DNA from: an uncultured Rhodospirillaceae bacterium
GTDB taxonomy: Bacteria > Pseudomonadota > Alphaproteobacteria > Rhodospirillales > UBA2165
Direction: 5' to 3'
DNA: 43,903 bases
NCBI GenBank assembly: GCA_913041095.1
Contig: CAJWIB010000001.1
Coordinates: 1-43,903 of the forward strand
The translations under genes were made by a program, and so were the position numbers. Shown one piece after another: positions 15,595 through 35,861 of this stretch. Every line of letters begins with the position of its first letter. The stretch's first letter is position 1. The notes under the pieces were generated by a model, which was not told the origin of the DNA, did no database searches, and was given only the letters and a program-made list of their open reading frames with translations.

Positions 15595-15924
15595 ATGGTG
15601 CGGAATGGGTTGTTGATTGATTATAATTACTGCACCGGTTGCCGATCCTGCGAGATTGCCTGTCAGCAGGAACATAATTATCCCGCTGGCCAGTTCGGCA
15701 TTACGGTCACCGAGCATATTCTTGAGAAGAAAAACGGCCTTTCGATTTACTATCTTCCGTTTCCAACTGATCTTTGTAATCTCTGCGCCCACCGGACCCA
15801 AGACGGTGCTCAACCTTCTTGCGTTAAACACTGCCAGGCCCGCTGCATGAGCTTTGGGCCGCTCACAGAAATGGTCGCTCAAATGAATGAGCAGCCGAAG
15901 ACCGTACTCTACGCGCCGAAGTAA
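15595..15924 (+). CDS. 4Fe-4S dicluster mini-ferredoxin, small subunit of Mo/W oxidoreductase (locus A)
   Basis: 109 aa. It has CTGCRSCEIAC (CxxCxxCxxxC) and CNLC-x11-C-x3-C-x3-C. It lies 14 nt upstream of the large subunit. Its paralogue is at 31371-31709. Confidence 0.8.
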   Translation: MVRNGLLIDYNYCTGCRSCEIACQQEHNYPAGQFGITVTEHILEKKNGLSIYYLPFPTDLCNLCAHRTQDGAQPSCVKHCQARCMSFGPLTEMVAQMNEQPKTVLYAPK

Positions 15925-15938
15925 GGGGGATATATTAA

Positions 15939-18191
15939 ATGAATAAGGTGGATGATGTGAAAATTGTTAAAACCGGCGCGTGGTCGGGTGGACCAGGGTG
16001 CCATGGCGGTTGCGGTGTTGATTTGCATATCAAAGACGGCAAGCTGGTCAAAGTTGAAGGCGACGAGGATCACCCGTTTCATCAGGGCCGGCTTTGTCCC
16101 CGGGCTTTGGCGCTAACCCAATACGCTTATCATGAAGACCGGCTGCAAACGCCGCTGAAGCGAGTTGGTGAGAGGGGTTCCGGCGAATGGGCGAAAATTT
16201 CGTGGGATGAAGCGCTCGACGAGTGTGAATATGAATTGCGCAAAATCCGCGACGAGTACGGTGCTGAATCGATGGTGTTTGGTCAAGGCACCGGGCGCGA
16301 TGCCGGTGGACCGCTAATCTTTATGGCTTATGCCTATGGCAGTCCTAATTGGACTTTATTTGGTCTGTCCGGCATTTCATGTTTTACACCGCGATTGGCC
16401 GGGATGCACACTGTTGCCGGTGATATTACATTTCCTGATGCCGCGCAGTTTTCACCCGAGCGTTACGATGATCCAGAATACACACCGCCCGAGGTGATGC
16501 TGCACTGGGCCCGGGGTATTCGCGGCTCTCAATGCACCGATCACTATTTCTCCGGCCACTATGTCGTCGACATGATGAAGCTCGGCACTAAGCTGATCGT
16601 TATCGATCCGCGCTTCTCTTGGGCAGCGTCCCGGGCTGAGTTGTGGTTGCAAATCCGTCCTGGCACCGATGGTGCGCTGGCGCTCGGTATGCTCAATGTT
16701 ATTATTAACGAGAACCTCTACGATAAGGAATTCGTTGAAAAATGGACCCACGGTTTTGAGGAACTTAAACAACGGGTGCAGGACTATCCACTGGCCAAGG
16801 TTTCTGAGATTACCTGGATTCCGACGGAAGATATTGTCAAGGCTGCCCGCATGTATGCCAAGGCCAATCCAGGCGCCATCCGGTTTGGCCAGCCATTGGA
16901 TTCCAACGCTCAAGCCACTGCTACCATGCATGCGCTCAACTGTCTGTGGGCGATTACCGGCAATACGGATATTCCCGGTGGTAACATTATCTGCCGCCCG
17001 CCTTATGGCGTGTCGCTTTATCCGTATTCGACCGAGGAAGTGATCCAGCTTTATGGTGAGGAGTTAGTCAATAACCTCAATAAAAAACGTATCGGCGCTG
17101 ACAAGTTCCCACTGGTGAAGAATTTCCGCGCCTGGGCGCTGGCCGATACAGTGCTTGAGCAGATGGAGTCCGGTGACCCTTATCCGATCAAGGGACTCTG
17201 GCTCTACACCAACAATTTCATGGCCGGCACGGCACAGGACCCGAGGCGGCATTATGAAGCGGTTAAGAAGCTCAATTTCAATGTCGTTGTCGATAACTTC
17301 ATGACACCGACTGCCTCGGCCATTGCCGATATCGTATTACCCGGCCAGACCATGGCGGAAAAAGATTCCGTTTTTACCACCGGTGTTATTCTTAACGCCA
17401 TGCATGGGCCGCTTAAAATCGGCGATACCAAGTCTGGCTGGGATGTTGCCTTTGAAATGGGCAAACGGCTCAATCCGCAGGCGGTACCGTGGGATACGCT
17501 ACAGGATCTGTTTACCGAACGCTTGCGCCCGGCGGGGGTTACCTTCAATGAATTGGTTGAAAATAATGGTATGCTGACGCCAAAGGATCACATTTCCGGT
17601 GGCAGACCTTACCGCCGTCATGAAAAAGGTCAGCTGCGGCCGGATGGTGAACCCGGTTTCCGTACACCGACCGGTAAGATCGAACTTTATTCGACCAAGT
17701 TCGAGGAATATGGCCTCGACCCGCTGCCTTTCCACGAAGAACCCGTTGAAAGCCCGATTAGCACACCGGAGATATTCAAAGAGTATCCGCTGATCATGAT
17801 AACCGGGCGACGCAATCCGACTTATTACCATAGTGAGCACCGGCAAATCCCCTGGCTGCGGCAGTTTGACGGGGAGCCCTATGTCGAGTTGCATCAGGAA
17901 ACTGCTGCCGAACTTGGCGTTGAGGATGGAGAATGGGTCTGGATCGAAGGCGTACGCGGCAAGGTCAAACGCAAGCTCAGAACTACGCCGGTGGTGCACC
18001 GGCAAATGGCGATGGCGCCGCATGGTTGGTGGTATCCGGAAAAGGAAAACAAAGCGCCGATTCTCAATGGCATTTGGGATATCAACCTCAACCAATTGAT
18101 CCCAATGGGTCATCAAGGTAAATCCGGCTTTGGCGGCGCGCCACTCAAGACCATGCTGTGCAAAATTTATCCGATGGAGAAAGTCTCTTAG
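15939..18191 (+). CDS. Molybdopterin (bis-MGD, DMSO-reductase/MopB superfamily) oxidoreductase large subunit, cytoplasmic (locus A)
   Basis: 750 aa. It has an N-terminal Fe-S-like motif GCHGGC-x27-CPR and a MopB-like domain order with a C-terminal dinucleotide-binding domain. There is no RR leader. Its paralogue is at 31712-33949. Confidence 0.8.
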   Translation: MNKVDDVKIVKTGAWSGGPGCHGGCGVDLHIKDGKLVKVEGDEDHPFHQGRLCPRALALTQYAYHEDRLQTPLKRVGERGSGEWAKISWDEALDECEYELRKIRDEYGAESMVFGQGTGRDAGGPLIFMAYAYGSPNWTLFGLSGISCFTPRLAGMHTVAGDITFPDAAQFSPERYDDPEYTPPEVMLHWARGIRGSQCTDHYFSGHYVVDMMKLGTKLIVIDPRFSWAASRAELWLQIRPGTDGALALGMLNVIINENLYDKEFVEKWTHGFEELKQRVQDYPLAKVSEITWIPTEDIVKAARMYAKANPGAIRFGQPLDSNAQATATMHALNCLWAITGNTDIPGGNIICRPPYGVSLYPYSTEEVIQLYGEELVNNLNKKRIGADKFPLVKNFRAWALADTVLEQMESGDPYPIKGLWLYTNNFMAGTAQDPRRHYEAVKKLNFNVVVDNFMTPTASAIADIVLPGQTMAEKDSVFTTGVILNAMHGPLKIGDTKSGWDVAFEMGKRLNPQAVPWDTLQDLFTERLRPAGVTFNELVENNGMLTPKDHISGGRPYRRHEKGQLRPDGEPGFRTPTGKIELYSTKFEEYGLDPLPFHEEPVESPISTPEIFKEYPLIMITGRRNPTYYHSEHRQIPWLRQFDGEPYVELHQETAAELGVEDGEWVWIEGVRGKVKRKLRTTPVVHRQMAMAPHGWWYPEKENKAPILNGIWDINLNQLIPMGHQGKSGFGGAPLKTMLCKIYPMEKVS

Positions 18192-29966: not shown

Positions 29967-30884
29967 TCAACTGAGTGGCGAGGGTGAAGGCCCCGGTTTA
30001 TTCAACCGTGATTCTCGATGCGCGATGTAGGTTGATGCCGAGACAATAATTGCCGCCCCAATCCAAGTCCAGAGACCTGGAAATTCGCTAAAGACGAAAA
30101 AGCCGATAAGGGCGGCCCAGATAAGCCGGGTAAAAACAAGCGGCTCCAAAGCGCTAACTTCGCTATATTTGAAGGCCTGCACCATAGTCAAGTGTGCCAT
30201 GGCGACAAACACGCCGGTTCCGGCCAGCCAGGCCAGTTGCTCCAGGTTCGGCGTGCGCCAGACAAAAAGTGCTAGGCAAAAAGAAATTGGGGTCTGCAAA
30301 ATAGCGACCAAGGCACTGCAGGTGACGGCACTGTCAGTACGAGATAAATACTTGGCGAAAAGTTTAGTTCCGGCACTGCTGGCGGCAGATAGAATGACAA
30401 ATATGAAGCCGATGCTTACCACCGCAAATCCTGGCCGAATAATAACCAAGGCACCAATAATACCAACTCCGAGAGCGATCCATCGGCGTTGGCGGATTTT
30501 CTCACCGAGAAACAACATCGCGCCGACGGTCACAAAAAGTGGTCCGATCAATCCCAAGGCGACTGCATCGGCAAGAGGCACCAAAGACAATGCGGTGTAC
30601 CAGGTTATTAATGCACCAGCGTTGAAACAGGCGCGGACTATATGGAGTGGGAGCTTAGTTGTCTTAAGCGGCGTCAAGCCGATCTTAAAAAACCACGGAA
30701 TATAAAACAACGCTGAAAATAAGTTGGAGAAAAAAGCGATCTCAAATGGGTGAAGTTCCGGGCCAATGTGGCGGACAATACCGTGAGAGGAAATGAAGAA
30801 CAAATTGCTGAAAATTGTCAAGCCGGCAGCAAGTAAGTAGGTCGTGGACAACGCAATTCCGTGCGAGGAGGCAGGTTGGTTCAT
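29967..30884 (-). CDS. DMT superfamily (EamA-type) transporter
   Basis: About 305 aa from MNQPASSHG.., with ten hydrophobic segments in two EamA-like halves. The longer track ORF (start 30938) is less likely. Confidence 0.75.
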   Translation of the reverse strand: MNQPASSHGIALSTTYLLAAGLTIFSNLFFISSHGIVRHIGPELHPFEIAFFSNLFSALFYIPWFFKIGLTPLKTTKLPLHIVRACFNAGALITWYTALSLVPLADAVALGLIGPLFVTVGAMLFLGEKIRQRRWIALGVGIIGALVIIRPGFAVVSIGFIFVILSAASSAGTKLFAKYLSRTDSAVTCSALVAILQTPISFCLALFVWRTPNLEQLAWLAGTGVFVAMAHLTMVQAFKYSEVSALEPLVFTRLIWAALIGFFVFSEFPGLWTWIGAAIIVSASTYIAHRESRLNKPGPSPSPLS

Positions 30885-30995
30885 CAATAAAACTCGTGGA
30901 TATTTACGAGATTTGAGCCTAACAGCAGGGTGATACATTTGAAAGGCGACATCGGAAGATGTCGCCTTACCTATGAATTTTAAATTTGAAAGTGG

Positions 30996-31290
30996 CTAAA
31001 AATCTACAATAACACCAACCATGAAGTTGTGGCTGGCATAGATACTTTCGAACGGCGTTCCGCTGACATCGGAAAATTTAGGGTCTTGAGTTTCGAAATA
31101 GTGGTAACCAATTTCTATTTTGGTTCGATCATTGAGATCAAAAGTGATACCGTCGCGGACTTATAGTGCAAATACCCAATCCATATCATCGGCAACAGCG
31201 CTTTCAGTTGTGCTAAAATCGCTCAAGAATAGTCCAGCTATACCAATACCACCCATCAGAAAAGGTGTTACGCGGGTCGAGTTGGCGCAT
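30996..31290 (-). pseudogene. Outer-membrane beta-barrel (OmpA-like/OMP_b-brl) C-terminal stump with in-frame TAA at 31161-31163
   Basis: The reverse translation is ..VTPFLMGGIGIAGLFLSDFSTTESAVADDMDWVFAL*VRDGITFDLNDRTKIEIGYHYFETQDPKFSDVSGTPFESIYASHNFMVGVIVDF*. It has alternating beta-strand patterns and the terminal aromatic (..VDF) typical of OMP barrels. There is no start, signal peptide or N-terminal half. Confidence 0.65.
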
Positions 31291-31370
31291 GACGAGTGGT
31301 TGGGATTCTCTTCTTTTTAACCGCAAACAAACAAAAATATGATCAAGCAGTACTAATTGGGTGTCTAGCC

Positions 31371-31709
31371 TTACTTCGGCGTATGGGTATAGAGCACAGC
31401 CCGGGGGCGCGATGCCGCCTCGATGGCGAGGTCACTGGTCAGGCCAAAATACATGCACGCGGTTTGGCAATGTTTGACGCAGCTTGGCCGTTCACCGTCA
31501 GCCTGGCGGCCCATGCAGAGATCACACAAATCGGTGAGAAACGGTATACAATCGATCTTTACCTTGCCGTTGGCCAGTTTGTATTCGTACTCAGTGACTT
31601 TGATACCGTTAAGGCCGACCGGATAATCATGTTCCTGCTGGCAAGCAACTTCACACGTGTGACAGCCGGTACAGAAGTCCGTGTCAATTAAGATACCGTA
31701 TTTAGCCAT
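31371..31709 (-). CDS. 4Fe-4S dicluster mini-ferredoxin, small subunit of Mo/W oxidoreductase (locus B)
   Basis: 112 aa. It has CTGCHTCEVAC and CDLC-x11-C-x3-C-x3-C and is a clear paralogue of 15595-15924. It starts 2 nt after the large-subunit stop. Confidence 0.8.
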   Translation of the reverse strand: MAKYGILIDTDFCTGCHTCEVACQQEHDYPVGLNGIKVTEYEYKLANGKVKIDCIPFLTDLCDLCMGRQADGERPSCVKHCQTACMYFGLTSDLAIEAASRPRAVLYTHTPK

Positions 31710-31711
31710 GG

Positions 31712-33949
31712 TTACGCACCCCCTTCGGTGATCTTGGCGAGGCGCACTAATGTGGTTTTATACTGACCGCCGCCAAAGCCTGATTTGCTGGCCTGAGGTC
31801 CGGGGATGATCTGATTGACCTGATAATCCCAGACGTTGAATAAATTGGGCTCAGCCCCCTCGGCTTCGGGCTTAAACCAGCCATGCAAGGTTTGCACATG
31901 GTTCGGTTTGACTTTGAGAGAGATTACGGCTTTGCGCTTGATATGGCCCATGTCATTTTCGAGATGTACCCATTCACCGTCATAGATATTGTACTCTTTT
32001 GCCGTGTCGGGATGAATTTCGACTGTCGGGTCGGGCTCTTTTTCACGCAGCCAGGGGATTTGGCGATGCTCCGAATGGAAAAACAAATTGGAGCGGGCGC
32101 CGGTGATCATCACCAGGGGATACTTTTTGAACAAGTCCGGCGTAGACGCTTCGCTTTGCGGCGGCTCGGTATAGAAGGGCAGGGGATCCATGCCCCATTC
32201 CTCAAAGGATTTGTTATAGATCTCAACCTTCCCCGACGGCGTGTTGAAGCCGGGCTTACCATCGGCTCGTAAATGACCTTTCTCGTAGCGCCGGTATGGC
32301 CGGCCCGGGCCTTCCGGAGACATCGCCCAACCGCCCTTGGCTTCTAAATCTTCGAAAGTCATACCGGAGGGCTCCATCCGTTCATCAAAGTAATCAATGA
32401 CCGTGGCCCAGCGTTGCAGACCTTCCGGATTGAAGCGTTTGGCGAGTTCGAAATTGATCTCCCAGTCTGAGCGGCATTCGCCGACTTGGACGCGTTTTTT
32501 GATGCTGTCCATCGGGGTCCACCAGGAGCGGAAACTGTTTTTCTCCGGGAAGGTTGCCGCCGGCAGAATTATATCAGCCAAGGCCATGGTCGTCGGGTTA
32601 TGGAACAGATCAACAATGGCAACGAAGTCGAGTTTTTTCATTGCATCGTAGTGGAATTTGGCGCGGGCGGCCTGACCACCAATGACATTGGCGGTTTGAA
32701 TCCAAGCCCCTTTGATTGGATAGGGATCACCGGTTTCAATCTGCTCGATGGTGACATCGGGTGAGGCCCAGCCGCGGAAATGCTTATACATCGGATAGAC
32801 ATCAGCACCGATCCGTTTCTCATTCATGCGGGTGATCAGATCTTTGCCGTAAAGCTCGATTAGTTCTTCCGAGGAAAATGGATAAGCAGTAACGCCGAAG
32901 GCCGGTTTGGCGATGACCTGGCCGCCCGGAATATCGATATTGCCGGTAACCGTCCAGAGGCACGAAATAGCGTGGGCGACCGCGGTGCCGTCCGGGCACA
33001 TATCAATCGGGACACCCCATTGAATGGCCGCTTGTTTGGCATTGGCGTATGCGCGGGCCGCTGCTTGAATGTCTGCGGCGGGGATTTCCGTGATCGCCGC
33101 GACTTTATCAACCGGGTATTCGGCGGCGCGTTCTTTGATCGCATCAAAGCCATCAACCCACTTTTCGACAAAGTCTTTGTCATATATTTCTTCTTCAATG
33201 ATGATGTTGAGCATACCGAGCGCCAGGGCGCCATCGGTGCCGGGGCGAATTTGTAGATGATATTCTGCCCGGGTCGACATCCAGGTATTGCGCGGATCGA
33301 CTGAGATAATTTTGGAGCCGCGCTGCATGCAATCGACAATCCACGGGCCATAAAAACCATCGGGACAGGTGTTAGGCGGATTTTGACCCCAGACGATGAT
33401 GTATTCAGGAGCTTCCCATTCCGGGTCTTCATAGCGCTTTTCGAGGAATTGTGAACAATCGGCGACAGCGAATTCGCCGAGGGTGGTTTTCATCGCGCCC
33501 AGGCGCGGGGTATAACAGGAATGGCCGGAAAGACCGAGCTGCACCCAGTTGGGACTGCCGTAACTATAGGCCAGGAAGGTGATCGGCCCACCGATATCCC
33601 GGCCGGTGCCTTGCACGAAGATCACCGATTCCGCGCCGTGTTCGTCGCGGATTTTACCCATGCGCTCTTCGCAGATGTCAAGCGCTTCATCCCAAGAGAT
33701 TGGCTCGAATTTGCCTTCACCACGTTCGCCAACCCGGATCTGCGGCTGAGTGATGCGATCCTCATGATAGACGTATTGGGTCATCGCCAGGGCGCGGGGA
33801 CAGGAGCGTCCCTGATTCCAGGGATGATCTTCGTTGCCTTCTACCTTGACGAGCCTGCCATCCTCAACAAAGAGGTTTTGACCGCAGCCACCGTGACATC
33901 CAGTACCGGCGGACCATGCTGTTGTTGGATATACGTCTATCTTTCCCAT
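31712..33949 (-). CDS. Molybdopterin (bis-MGD) oxidoreductase large subunit, cytoplasmic (locus B)
   Basis: 745 aa, collinear with 15939-18191. The N-terminal blocks are TAWSAGTGCHGGCG (B) against GAWSGGPGCHGGCG (A). Other shared blocks are QIRPGTDGALALGMLN and HSEHRQIPWLR. There is no RR leader. Confidence 0.8.
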   Translation of the reverse strand: MGKIDVYPTTAWSAGTGCHGGCGQNLFVEDGRLVKVEGNEDHPWNQGRSCPRALAMTQYVYHEDRITQPQIRVGERGEGKFEPISWDEALDICEERMGKIRDEHGAESVIFVQGTGRDIGGPITFLAYSYGSPNWVQLGLSGHSCYTPRLGAMKTTLGEFAVADCSQFLEKRYEDPEWEAPEYIIVWGQNPPNTCPDGFYGPWIVDCMQRGSKIISVDPRNTWMSTRAEYHLQIRPGTDGALALGMLNIIIEEEIYDKDFVEKWVDGFDAIKERAAEYPVDKVAAITEIPAADIQAAARAYANAKQAAIQWGVPIDMCPDGTAVAHAISCLWTVTGNIDIPGGQVIAKPAFGVTAYPFSSEELIELYGKDLITRMNEKRIGADVYPMYKHFRGWASPDVTIEQIETGDPYPIKGAWIQTANVIGGQAARAKFHYDAMKKLDFVAIVDLFHNPTTMALADIILPAATFPEKNSFRSWWTPMDSIKKRVQVGECRSDWEINFELAKRFNPEGLQRWATVIDYFDERMEPSGMTFEDLEAKGGWAMSPEGPGRPYRRYEKGHLRADGKPGFNTPSGKVEIYNKSFEEWGMDPLPFYTEPPQSEASTPDLFKKYPLVMITGARSNLFFHSEHRQIPWLREKEPDPTVEIHPDTAKEYNIYDGEWVHLENDMGHIKRKAVISLKVKPNHVQTLHGWFKPEAEGAEPNLFNVWDYQVNQIIPGPQASKSGFGGGQYKTTLVRLAKITEGGA

Positions 33950-34196
33950 AACACAAAACCTTCATCTAAATCACAGATTTCTTTATTTAATTATCTAATT
34001 TACCAAGCTATCAAAAAGCTAATTAGTTAGACAAACTGTTTTTTGCCATTAATCGGAAATTCAGCCTTTTAACATGAGGTCAGGCTTGGTAAGTCCTATC
34101 GAGAGAATTTGGAGGGGTGATGCAGCCAAATTCCAGGAGCCCGAAATTCTCGAGTAAAAGTCATAATAAAAGCCAGTTTCGGCAGAAGGGGAATTC

Positions 34197-35861
34197 ATGT
34201 CACGGGCCGCAGACATATTAGTTCAAACCTTAATAGCGCATGGCGTTGATCGCGTTTTTTGTGTGCCGGGGGAAAGTTATCTCGCTGTCATTGATGCTAT
34301 GTATGATGCGCCGGAAATTGATGTGGTGACAACACGCCATGAAGGCGGCGCCGGGTTTATGGCGGTCGCCGATGCCAAGATGACGAGCCAGCCGGGTGTA
34401 GCCATGGTCAGCCGCGGTCCCGGTGCGACCAATGTTTCAATTGGCGTACATGTGGCGCAACAGGATGCCGTGCCGATGGTGCTGTTCGTCGGCCAAGTCG
34501 CCCGAGCTGATTTAGGTCGCAGCGCTTTTCAGGAAGTAAATTACAGCCAGACCTTTGGTGATATGGCGAAATGGGTGATTGAAGTTCATGACGCCGACAA
34601 ACTAGCTGAAAATGTGCGCCGGGCTTTTACCATCGCGCGGTCAGGCATTCCGGGACCGGTGGTGGTTTCCCTGCCGGAAGATATGCTGCTAGATGAAACC
34701 GATACACCGGCATTAGGGCCAACCAAGATTGCCCAACCACTGACCGATGCCGGTGATATCATCGAGCTTTGCGATATGCTGCGCGCAGCGGAACGCCCCT
34801 TAATTATTGCCGGTGGTCAGGTCGGCGGTGAGCTTGGTCGCCAAGCTTTGAGGACGGTAAGCGAAGTCTGGAGTATTCCGGTGGCGGTTGCCTGGCGGCA
34901 CCAGGATATTTTTGATGTCGCCCACCCGAATTTTGCCTGTCACTTGGCGTTTAATATGCCGTCATTGTTTAAAGAAACCCTCAATGAGGCCGATCTGGTG
35001 GTTGCTATAGGCACGCGCCTCGGCGATGTCGTCACTCAAGGCTATAAAATCCCGGAGGCGCCTCAGCCCAAGCAAAAACTGGTGCATGTATATAATGACG
35101 TCGCGCCGATCGGCAATGTCTTCGAAACTGATCTTGGGATTGTCGCCGATGCGACCGAGACTTTGCTGGCGGTTGCGCAGGCGAACGCGCTAGAAGCACC
35201 GGAAGGCCGGGCCGATTGGCTCAAGAAAACCCACGCTTTAAGTGCCGATAAAATGAAGTGGGAGATGGCCGAGGCTGATGATGGTGTGCCGTTCGGCAAT
35301 GTTGTCGCCCATCTGCGTGATATCGTCGAGGATGATGCCATCACGTCGATTGATGCCGGTAATTTTTCGACCTTCGTCCATCGTTTATTTGATTACAAAA
35401 CCACCCATACACAATTGGCAGCGGTCGCGGGCGCGATGGGGATGGGGGTGCCGTCGGCAGTGGCCGGGGCTCTCCGCGCCCCTGGTCGTCAGGTGATTTG
35501 CTTTGTCGGCGATGGTGGCTATCAGATGACCGGAAATGAGATATCCGTGGCGGTTGAGCGTAATTTGCCGATCCGTATATTTGTCTCGAATAATAGCAGC
35601 CTCGGCACCATCCGGCTCTATCAGGAGAAATCTTATCCGGATCGGACCTTGGCAACCAATATGACCAATCCGGACTTTGCCAAGATCGCCAAGGCTTATG
35701 GAGCCAAAGGCTTCAAGATCGAGACCAATGACGATATTGCGCCAGTGATTAAAAAAGCCTTTAAGGTTGATGGTCCGGCTTTAATAGAGGTTAATGCCAG
35801 CCTCGAATATTTGGCCGCCTATATCAATATGTCACAAATTCGCGACGTTCATAAAAAATAG
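34197..35861 (+). CDS. Thiamine-pyrophosphate-dependent enzyme (acetolactate synthase large-subunit-like)
   Basis: 554 aa. It has an N-terminal TPP-pyrimidine domain (VFCVPGESYL.., RHEGGAGFMA) and a C-terminal GDGGYQMTGNEISVAVERNLPIRIFVSNN (GDG-x24-NN TPP motif). Confidence 0.8.
   Translation: MSRAADILVQTLIAHGVDRVFCVPGESYLAVIDAMYDAPEIDVVTTRHEGGAGFMAVADAKMTSQPGVAMVSRGPGATNVSIGVHVAQQDAVPMVLFVGQVARADLGRSAFQEVNYSQTFGDMAKWVIEVHDADKLAENVRRAFTIARSGIPGPVVVSLPEDMLLDETDTPALGPTKIAQPLTDAGDIIELCDMLRAAERPLIIAGGQVGGELGRQALRTVSEVWSIPVAVAWRHQDIFDVAHPNFACHLAFNMPSLFKETLNEADLVVAIGTRLGDVVTQGYKIPEAPQPKQKLVHVYNDVAPIGNVFETDLGIVADATETLLAVAQANALEAPEGRADWLKKTHALSADKMKWEMAEADDGVPFGNVVAHLRDIVEDDAITSIDAGNFSTFVHRLFDYKTTHTQLAAVAGAMGMGVPSAVAGALRAPGRQVICFVGDGGYQMTGNEISVAVERNLPIRIFVSNNSSLGTIRLYQEKSYPDRTLATNMTNPDFAKIAKAYGAKGFKIETNDDIAPVIKKAFKVDGPALIEVNASLEYLAAYINMSQIRDVHKK

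Follow-up and report, generated by a model that had tools for sequence, protein, structure and literature searches.

What does a second copy of a molybdenum-enzyme gene pair do in a genome that already carries one, and where did it come from? The question is raised by locus B, at positions 31371–33949 of a 43,903-nt stretch of DNA (hereafter the window; contig CAJWIB010000001.1 of assembly GCA_913041095.1) from an uncultured Rhodospirillaceae bacterium (Rhodospirillales, UBA2165). Locus B joins a gene for a large molybdopterin-type catalytic subunit to a gene for a small ferredoxin, and a similar pair, locus A, lies in the same window with its two genes in the other order. An earlier note on this DNA had taken the two pairs as an old duplication followed by rearrangement and substrate divergence. 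The full explanation that we consider best, with a probability of roughly 0.7, is that locus B encodes a soluble heterodimeric Mo/W enzyme of the Gordonibacter-type clade that reductively dehydroxylates a phenolic of the catechol or pyrogallol type. We hold the assignment to this family and the account of its evolution with greater confidence and regard both as very probably right. The source is a metagenome-assembled genome (MAG; G000) with 2.67 Mb assembled in 370 contigs, 83% complete, for a genome of ∼3 Mb.

Locus B Encodes an Intact Catalytic Subunit and a Small Iron–Sulfur Partner

The genes compared here are as follows.

31712..33949, minus strand: catalytic subunit gene of locus B, an open reading frame (ORF) of 745 aa at exactly these coordinates
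31371..31709, minus strand: small ferredoxin gene of locus B, an ORF of 112 aa at exactly these coordinates
31710..31711, minus strand: 2-nt spacer from the catalytic stop to the ferredoxin ATG in B; the junction, read from the sequence, is TAA-CC-ATG
15595..18191, plus strand: locus A, the comparison partner, of a different clade and with a derived ferredoxin-first order (ferredoxin 15595-15924, 109 aa; catalytic subunit 15939-18191, 750 aa)

A likely ribosome-binding site, AAGGGGG, lies just upstream of the B ferredoxin ATG and, together with the 2-nt gap, suggests that the catalytic and ferredoxin genes are translationally coupled. Spacers of 2–3 nt are also found in the orthologous B loci of three relatives in the genus.

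The catalytic protein has the three-domain architecture of the MopB enzymes (dimethyl sulfoxide (DMSO) reductase superfamily), with Pfam matches that all lie above the gathering scores: PF04879 Molybdop_Fe4S4 (E 8e-13), PF00384 Molybdopterin (E 1.6e-36), and PF01568 Molydop_binding (E 4.9e-17). None of the NCBIfam equivalog cut-offs is reached, the best scores being 263 bits for PhsA (NF012032, cut-off 694) and 259 bits for Fdh-alpha (cut-off 666). By sequence, the closest solved relative is acetylene hydratase (AH; 2e7z, phmmer E 1e-82) and the second is PsrA (2vpw). An AlphaFold2 (AF2) model of the subunit (pLDDT 87.4, pTM 0.90) gives the same answer by fold: AH is the best Foldseek match (TM 0.85, 27% identity), and MopB structures are matched at TM 0.7–0.85. 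Because a search of the PDB by sequence and by fold gave nothing closer to B than AH, there appears to be no deposited structure for its enzyme family. The N-terminus, MGKIDVYPTTAWSAG, has no twin-arginine (RR) motif. Cys145 of B aligns with Cys141 of AH, the metal ligand, and is invariant across every group aligned; MobA and ModA genes for cofactor supply are present in the genome.

The pair is intact and under strong purifying selection. Measured against the orthologues in two genomes of the genus (G006 and G007), the catalytic gene has a dN/dS of 0.03–0.04 and the ferredoxin gene one of 0.02. Disabling changes in the cofactor-binding segments, a concern of the earlier note, are absent from both A and B, which keep the metal-ligand Cys and three Fe–S Cys.

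The 112-aa partner matches the Pfam families Fer4_2, Fer4_11, and Fer4. Its cysteines are arranged as C13-x2-C16-x2-C19-x3-C23 and C62-x2-C65-x11-C77-x3-C81, which correspond to groups I and IV of the four-cluster beta subunits, and residues 5–31 and 61–102 align by phmmer with FdhB (1h0h_B) and PsrB (2vpw_B) at their first and last motifs. The protein is probably a half-size beta subunit that carries two [4Fe-4S] clusters.

Locus B Falls in a Clade with Gordonibacter-Type Enzymes

A whole-genome search recovered five members of the family, listed here with their identity to B.

Window 31712-33949, minus strand: copy B, 100%; ferredoxin gene downstream
C234:2067-4313, plus strand: copy B', 71%; ferredoxin gene downstream (69%), with UbiD-family and EamA genes preceding
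Window 15939-18191, plus strand: copy A, 52%; ferredoxin gene upstream
C8:13319-15568, minus strand: copy D, 50–51%; ferredoxin gene downstream, beside TauE-family, LigB, FAA-hydrolase, and SDR genes
C27:12302-14473, minus strand: copy E, 38–40%; canonical C-x2-C-x3-C motif and no ferredoxin gene

Trees were built with FastTree from 145 sequences and with IQ-TREE from 65. Both contain one clade with support 100 (88 rows in FastTree, 58 in IQ-TREE) that includes A, B, B', D, and the enzymes of Gordonibacter sp. 28C and Eggerthellaceae; AH and the E-type enzymes lie outside it in both. Two groups are basal in this clade, one of Agathobacter with an Eggerthellaceae MAG and the other of Gordonibacter sp. 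28C with an Eggerthellaceae MAG. The rest consists of the D clade, a set of ∼815-aa enzymes (Dehalococcoidia, Bathyarchaeia, Desulfobacula), and the sister superclades A and B, each of which spans several phyla in both trees. The ∼815-aa sub-clade, which also has members in Actinomycetes, carries a ∼70-residue insertion between the N-terminal part and the rest of the protein; its loci (L069, L073, L075, L076, L079, L081-L083, L085, L086, and L121) show the same 3-Cys motif as described below and a downstream mini-ferredoxin.

The N-terminal Fe–S motif reads WS(A/G)GxGCHGGCG in A, B, B', and D and WSGPGCHDGCG in Gordonibacter. The basal Agathobacter and Eggerthellaceae sequences have CAWSxPGCHPVGCG, with a Cys kept at the first position, and E and the outgroups have the compact C-x2-C-x3-C. 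In B, the first motif Cys is replaced by Ala11 at that column, after which comes a four-residue insertion. The loss of the first Cys that the earlier note had seen in A and B is therefore shared with two further paralogues. Because the 3-Cys motif WSxGxGCHxGCG recurs across the aligned members of the clade, we read it, with its four-residue insertion, as a shared character of the sampled clade and no lesion. The confidence of the AF2 model is lowest at residues 14–17 (pLDDT <50), that is, at this motif.

To map active-site residues onto B, the roles of AH residues (Cys141, Asp13, and others) were taken from PMC12096430. The Fe–S ligands Cys12, Cys16, and Cys46 of AH correspond to C18, C22, and C50 of B and are conserved in the paralogues; a fourth, Cys9, has no counterpart in A, B, B', or D. 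Asp13 is essential in AH and specific to its subfamily (PMC12096430). The equivalent residue is His19 in B and His in five of five paralogues, as judged by the register of the C-x3-C motif, the AH N-terminus being in no alignment. Ile142 of AH corresponds to Tyr146, which is Tyr in B, B', and D vs Phe in the whole A superclade. Trp293, whose role was reportedly described with the 2007 structure, corresponds to Trp311 and is mostly Phe in A. In pairwise alignments, Trp472 corresponds to Trp477 of B and to Thr-Gly in A, a mapping that differs in the 145-row alignment and is uncertain; for Trp179 the alignment is gappy and gave no reliable equivalent in B. The clade-fixed differences between the A and B pockets would fit different substrates, which makes the substrate divergence proposed earlier plausible.

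The ferredoxins of B', A, and the third paralogue are 69%, 51%, and 44% identical to that of B, and their catalytic counterparts are 71%, 52%, and 51% identical. Since the ferredoxin identities track the catalytic ones, the two genes appear to have diverged together as a unit. Ferredoxin C54 or C85 was considered as a fourth Fe–S ligand supplied in trans and was rejected, as the A and D ferredoxins keep neither Cys.

Catechol dehydroxylases of the Eggerthella type are exported by twin-arginine translocation (TAT), larger, and accompanied by a ferredoxin and a membrane anchor, and those of the Gordonibacter type (Cldh-like) have no TAT signal, are smaller, have a small 4Fe-4S partner, and lie beside MFS transporters; Gordonibacter sp. 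28C is among the few strains with small Cldh-like enzymes (Maini Rekdal et al. 2020, eLife, PMC7028382). Tested against each known system, B has the architecture and the phylogenetic place of the Gordonibacter type and not those of AH or of the Dadh, PhsA, or AhtL types. The Gordonibacter-type enzyme, like B, is a MopB protein of ∼750 aa with Mo and bis-molybdopterin guanine dinucleotide (bisMGD) and no TAT signal (B has 745 aa and no RR motif), with a ∼110-aa Fe–S protein gene next to it (112 aa and 2 nt downstream in B, with no membrane-anchor gene). It also shares with B the WSxGxGCHxGCG motif, the Cys metal ligand, and membership of the same well-supported clade. The Gordonibacter sp. 28C locus (L063) has the order cat-fdx-cat-fdx-MFS (catalytic, cat; ferredoxin, fdx), and its proteins are 44–45% identical to B vs 31% for AH. 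The value of 45% equals that reported between Dodh and Cldh, Dadh and Cldh sharing only 29% (PMC7028382). The clade placement used the Gordonibacter sp. 28C homologues rather than the named Cldh and Dodh sequences. Unlike the Gordonibacter-type enzymes of gut Coriobacteriia, with which Gordonibacter takes hydroxyls off phenolics of plant origin, B belongs to an environmental alphaproteobacterial MAG and to a proteobacterial sub-clade in which we found no characterised member, and its nearby transporter is of the EamA/DMT family, with a linkage that is not conserved, rather than MFS.

The Eggerthella-type enzymes (Dadh, Hcdh, Cadh) are of a related bis-MGD family with Fe–S partners and reductively remove a catechol hydroxyl, but they are larger, carry a TAT signal, and are accompanied by a membrane anchor and by a 4Fe-4S ferredoxin encoded separately, whereas B is only 745 aa long and lacks both an RR motif and an anchor gene. 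Pyrogallol–phloroglucinol transhydroxylase (4v4c) and the AhtL-like proteins are, like B, cytoplasmic MopB enzymes, and they act on polyhydroxybenzenes. They differ from B in an N-terminal domain that is PF21423 and not Molybdop_Fe4S4 and in a ∼280-aa beta subunit with CarboxypepD_reg. Four other genes of this genome match PF21423 and B does not, and Foldseek ranks 4v4c only 24th for B (TM 0.73, 19% identity).

Proposed Reaction and Its Alternatives

Which reaction would such an enzyme catalyze? The loci of relatives for which precomputed Pfam neighbours were available carry polyphenol-related genes in seven of eight cases.

L136, B clade, Hyphomicrobiales: LysR, two Cyclase, SDR, 3HCDH, a second catalytic gene, and an AhtL-like pair
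L135, B clade: two AhtL-like pairs, a second cat-fdx pair, and BKACE
L134, B clade: AhtL-like pair, Cyclase, and SDR
L133, B clade: UbiD and two Amidohydro_2
L129, A clade, Clostridiales: 3HCDH, BKACE, two Cyclase, and LysR
L128, A clade: UbiD and an EcdD/BsdD-like gene
L127, A clade: AhtL-like gene and tautomerase
L126, A clade: no polyphenol-related genes

DPGC, PGR, TfD, and TAL of the anaerobic phloroglucinol pathway belong, respectively, to the Cyclase, SDR, 3HCDH, and BKACE families (PMC10470551). In the genome under study, BKACE and two cyclase genes lie together on one contig, and there are four AhtL-like genes. Because relatives from both clades adjoin phloroglucinol-pathway, transhydroxylase, and decarboxylase genes, we read B as a cytoplasmic polyphenol dehydroxylase. 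Taken alone, reductive dehydroxylation of a phenolic by B, which this genomic context suggests, has about an even chance of being correct, and a specific link of B to the phloroglucinol route is tentative and rather doubtful.

We infer the direction of the reaction, the substrate class, and the path of the electrons as follows. The catalytic subunit would bind Mo or W as a bis-pyranopterin guanine dinucleotide (bisPGD) complex through Cys145 and an N-terminal Fe–S cluster on C18, C22, and C50. The 112-aa cut-down beta subunit, with its two [4Fe-4S] clusters, would take electrons from a donor in the cell and pass them on to the catalytic subunit. In the most likely reaction, a catechol- or pyrogallol-type phenolic would then lose a ring hydroxyl by reduction, to give a meta-hydroxylated product that downstream pathways, for example the phloroglucinol route, could use.

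Several points weigh against this assignment. The proteobacterial B clade has no assayed member, the nearest characterised enzymes are at ∼45% identity in a family whose members differ widely in substrate, and the two L063 proteins may not themselves be characterised enzymes. The neighbours of B are not recognisably those of an aromatic pathway (a TPP enzyme, where TPP is thiamine pyrophosphate, an LLM oxidoreductase, a non-conserved EamA gene, and housekeeping genes), and no gene for an electron donor is adjacent. The direction of catalysis, reduction or hydroxylation, is not readable from sequence, and the metal may be Mo or W. The 3-Cys site may hold either a [4Fe-4S] or a [3Fe-4S] cluster, and it is here, at residues 14–17, that the AF2 model is weakest.

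The main live alternative keeps the family and reverses the direction, so that B would be a water-dependent phenolic-ring hydroxylase (like resorcinol hydroxylase or the oxidative half of a transhydroxylation) whose electrons leave through the mini-ferredoxin. Oxygen-atom transfer at Mo-bisPGD is reversible in principle, relatives lie repeatedly beside AhtL-like transhydroxylase/hydroxylase-type pairs, and ring-cleaving dioxygenase genes in the host, such as the LigB gene beside D, may favor hydroxylated intermediates. However, the characterised members of the clade are described as reductive dehydroxylases (PMC7028382, PMC11887054), and a low-potential 2×[4Fe-4S] partner with no quinone or cytochrome link fits the delivery of electrons better than their disposal. 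We give the hydroxylase a real but clearly minor share of the probability.

It is very improbable that B is an AH-type non-redox hydratase. AH, from Syntrophotalea (Pelobacter) acetylenica, is the closest solved structure by both sequence and fold, and like B it is cytoplasmic, of similar size, and equipped with the Cys metal ligand and three of the four Fe–S Cys. Nevertheless, AH is a monomer that has no partner subunit and performs no net redox chemistry, whereas B has a dedicated, co-evolving ferredoxin. B also has His19 for Asp13 (by motif register) and, with no counterpart of Cys9, no four-Cys motif (Cys9, 12, 16, and 46), and neither tree places it in the AH branch. A reductase of inorganic or small S/N-oxide substrates (thiosulfate, polysulfide, DMSO, or selenate) is equally hard to credit. 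PhsA and Fdh-alpha are the best NCBIfam matches and PsrA is the second-best solved relative, but all scores fall well short of the curated cut-offs. B lacks a TAT signal and a membrane subunit or anchor gene and has a half-size partner in place of a four-cluster beta subunit, and the conserved context in relatives is aromatic, not sulfur or selenium.

Loci A and B Have Separate Histories

How, then, do A and B stand to each other, if both encode enzymes of this dehydroxylase-type clade? BLASTP aligns their catalytic subunits end to end (386/745 = 52% identity, 71% positives, 10 gaps, E = 0) and their ferredoxins at 55/107 = 51% identity (E 2e-41), so that the earlier estimate by eye, of collinear pairs identical at roughly half or more of their positions, is correct. 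The blocks it had listed as common, GCHGGCG, LQIRPGTDGALALGMLN, GDPYPIKG, HSEHRQIPWLR, and KSGFGG, are found in both proteins, and TAWSAGTGCHGGCG and SGHSCYTPRL are found in the B protein. The two orders were also described accurately, with ferredoxin before catalytic gene in A (where the gap is 14 nt) and catalytic gene before ferredoxin in B with its 2-nt gap. The picture of two copies 13 kb apart holds for the spacing, which is 13.2 kb, but not for the number, the genome having at least five family members.

What does not survive is the view that A and B are each other's close relatives. The nearest paralogue of B is B' on C234, not A, and both A and B have homologues at 70–85% identity in other phyla. 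For A these reach 73–85% and come from Thermodesulfobacteriota, Clostridiales, Lachnospiraceae, and Chloroflexota; for B there are many at 70–75%, in Hyphomicrobiales, Xanthobacteraceae, Burkholderiales, and other Proteobacteria. The earlier note had proposed a tree to distinguish within-genome duplicates from separately acquired genes, and in the trees A and B lie in two separate multi-phylum clades. An approximately unbiased (AU) test rejects an exclusive A+B clade of the genus copies (log-likelihood (lnL) cost 665.6, p 3.9e-73). On these trees, A and B are better described as members of an ancient gene family with two widely distributed sub-families, each inherited or acquired on its own, and their split long predates this bacterial lineage. 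The claim of an old duplication, not a recent copy, is thus right about the age of the split and wrong in making A and B a pairwise duplicate of this genome.

A group confined to this bacterial family (SH-aLRT 93) unites B and B' with two copies of the sister genus G013, and tandem copies are present in relatives, as B-fdx-B'-fdx in G003 and as cat-cat-fdx in G013. From this family-restricted group and these arrays, the recent duplications are those of B and B', not of A and B. In the G003 array (G003:C15, L021/L036), a divergent TPP gene precedes the B-fdx-B'-fdx series. In the G013 array (G013:C1, L046, CAZNLR010000001.1, labeled 'uncultured Rhodospirillaceae'), the two catalytic genes are 55 nt apart and share one downstream ferredoxin gene. 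Similar cat-cat arrangements occur in L136 and in a Betaproteobacteria MAG (P0019 and P0050 on one contig).

The distribution of gene order bears on which locus was rearranged. Both genes were placed by tblastn in every locus, and four A-clade proteins also had called neighbours. Catalytic before ferredoxin is the order in B, B', D, the 815-aa clade, Gordonibacter, Eggerthellaceae, and Agathobacter, and two outer members of the A superclade, L056 (67% to A) and L058 (56%), share it. Ferredoxin before catalytic is confined to an inner A subclade whose members are drawn from unrelated taxa: the A copy of this genome, those of G006 and G007, and L126 (85%), L127 (77%), L128 (76%), and L129 (73%). 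We interpret B as retaining the ancestral order and the inversion as a shared derived trait of A's subclade. Since the ferredoxin-first order is common to A-clade members of other phyla, the inversion predates the arrival of the A gene in this lineage. The swap of subunit order ascribed to B is real as a difference, but its polarity is the reverse, A's subclade being the rearranged one. We also considered whether A-clade proteins of 834–867 aa were ferredoxin–catalytic fusions that could explain the inverted order, and dropped the idea; BLAST found no ferredoxin module in them, and what makes them longer is either an N-terminal extension of unrelated sequence or a start called too far upstream.

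That B arose from A by duplication in this genome or genus, with divergence in place and later rearrangement of one copy, in line with the 13-kb distance on one contig, the collinearity, the 52% identity, and the co-occurrence of A, B, B', and D in the same genus genomes (G006 and G007), is the weakest explanation of all and can be dismissed, as the identities of both copies to foreign homologues far exceed that between A and B, the tree and the AU test already refute it, and the ferredoxin-first order in other phyla puts the rearrangement before this lineage.

Among the 10 other genomes of the genus, B orthologues (93–97%) are present in three, A orthologues in two, and the E type in all. As this uneven spread indicates, the dehydroxylase-type copies are accessory genes. 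A signal of horizontal transfer in the base composition of B was set aside, since its G+C of 54% is not distinctive beside 49.5% for the genome and 51–52% for housekeeping genes.

Genomic Surroundings of Locus B and Its Paralogues

Three further features of the window flank the B pair.

33950..34196, no strand assigned: divergent intergenic region from the B catalytic gene to the TPP gene, 247 bp, with presumed promoters
34197..35861, plus strand: TPP enzyme, divergent neighbour, 554 aa; Pfam TPP_enzyme_N/M/C, PRK08199 subfamily (uncharacterised), NCBIfam NF006052 at 640 bits (cut-off 539)
29967..30938, minus strand: EamA/DMT transporter (Pfam EamA), 432 nt beyond the B ferredoxin gene on its downstream side; might carry the substrate or the product

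The divergent arrangement of B and the TPP gene is conserved in G003, G006, and G007, and TPP orthologues (82–95%) adjoin the B orthologues in L019, L020, and L021. The TPP gene is thus syntenic with B within the genus, and a functional link between the two is putative. NCBIfam and PDB searches with the TPP neighbour returned only a generic subfamily name. A scan of 33950..34196 for a sigma-70-like consensus promoter found none, and a scan for promoters and terminators around B found no more sites than in shuffled controls. An LLM oxidoreductase gene follows the TPP gene. On the other side, the 432-nt gap between the B ferredoxin and EamA genes (30939-31370) contains no minus-strand ORF of ≥60 aa. 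The linkage of EamA to B is not conserved, a histidine kinase gene lying downstream of the B pair in G007. Transporter genes accompany two of the other copies as well: the B' locus has its own, unrelated EamA gene upstream, and the D locus has a TauE-family permease.

The B' locus (L130, C234:20-4641) comprises a UbiD-family decarboxylase gene that is cut by the contig end, EamA, and the catalytic and ferredoxin genes; its UbiD-EamA-cat arrangement is also present in G006 and G007, with two EamA genes in G007. At the D locus (L131, C8:9298-15568), the catalytic subunit gene is found with a 125-aa ferredoxin gene, the TauE/SafE-family permease gene, a LigB-type ring-opening dioxygenase gene, two FAA-hydrolase-family genes, and an SDR gene, and a branched-chain-type ABC transporter lies upstream. 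The D locus thus combines an oxygen-dependent ring-cleavage gene with a dehydroxylase-type Mo enzyme. E-type genes (4-Cys, no ferredoxin; C27:12302-14473, loci L024-L035 and L066-L072) are present in 11 of 11 genus genomes, and in other Proteobacteria those at 61–64% identity to the copy of this genome adjoin AhtL-like transhydroxylase-type genes. The E-type paralogue looks like a core AH-like enzyme and is uncharacterised.

The four AhtL-like (PF21423) pyrogallol-transhydroxylase-type catalytic genes encode 843–1019 aa and lie on C4, C310, C236, and C16, and ∼5 further MopB genes of 836–894 aa are present in addition. On C118 (291-3052), the BKACE (TAL-like) gene and the two Cyclase-family (DPGC-like) genes stand in a row, with two 3-hydroxyisobutyrate-dehydrogenase-like genes after them, and the set is a candidate module for the degradation of phloroglucinol. 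A recent preprint on SAR116 (10.64898/2026.07.17.739263) reported that no DPGC gene was found in that clade, of which this MAG is at most a possible member.

Implications

B adds an uncharacterised enzyme from the environment to a known family, and our search found no characterised member of its environmental branch. A diverged paralogue with a swapped gene order is, by itself, ordinary gene-family biology. The genome as a whole holds an expanded arsenal, with five AH-like or dehydroxylase-type and four transhydroxylase-like enzymes in ∼3 Mb. Gut Eggerthellaceae are known for comparable dehydroxylase repertoires. Because A- and B-clade relatives are repeatedly embedded in phloroglucinol-pathway clusters, the substrate shortlist consists of pyrogallol, 1,2,3,5-tetrahydroxybenzene, hydroxyhydroquinone, gallate, and protocatechuate. 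For the classification of these genes in metagenomes, two markers are at hand, the FS0 motif with its three Cys and the gene order specific to each clade.

A broader proposal, speculative and in our judgment unlikely to hold in full, is that the proteobacterial B clade, with A and D, comprises oxygen-independent ring dehydroxylases that feed the PGR-DPGC-TfD-TAL phloroglucinol pathway in free-living, probably oxygen-respiring marine Alphaproteobacteria. They would work together with AhtL-like transhydroxylases and UbiD or amidohydrolase decarboxylases on gallate-, pyrogallol-, tetrahydroxybenzene-, and hydroxyhydroquinone-type phenolics, and the FS0 cluster on its three Cys, which may be [3Fe-4S], would serve as a means of redox tuning peculiar to the family. 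If this is true, 'gut-type' catechol dehydroxylation would extend to the turnover of polyphenols in the ocean.

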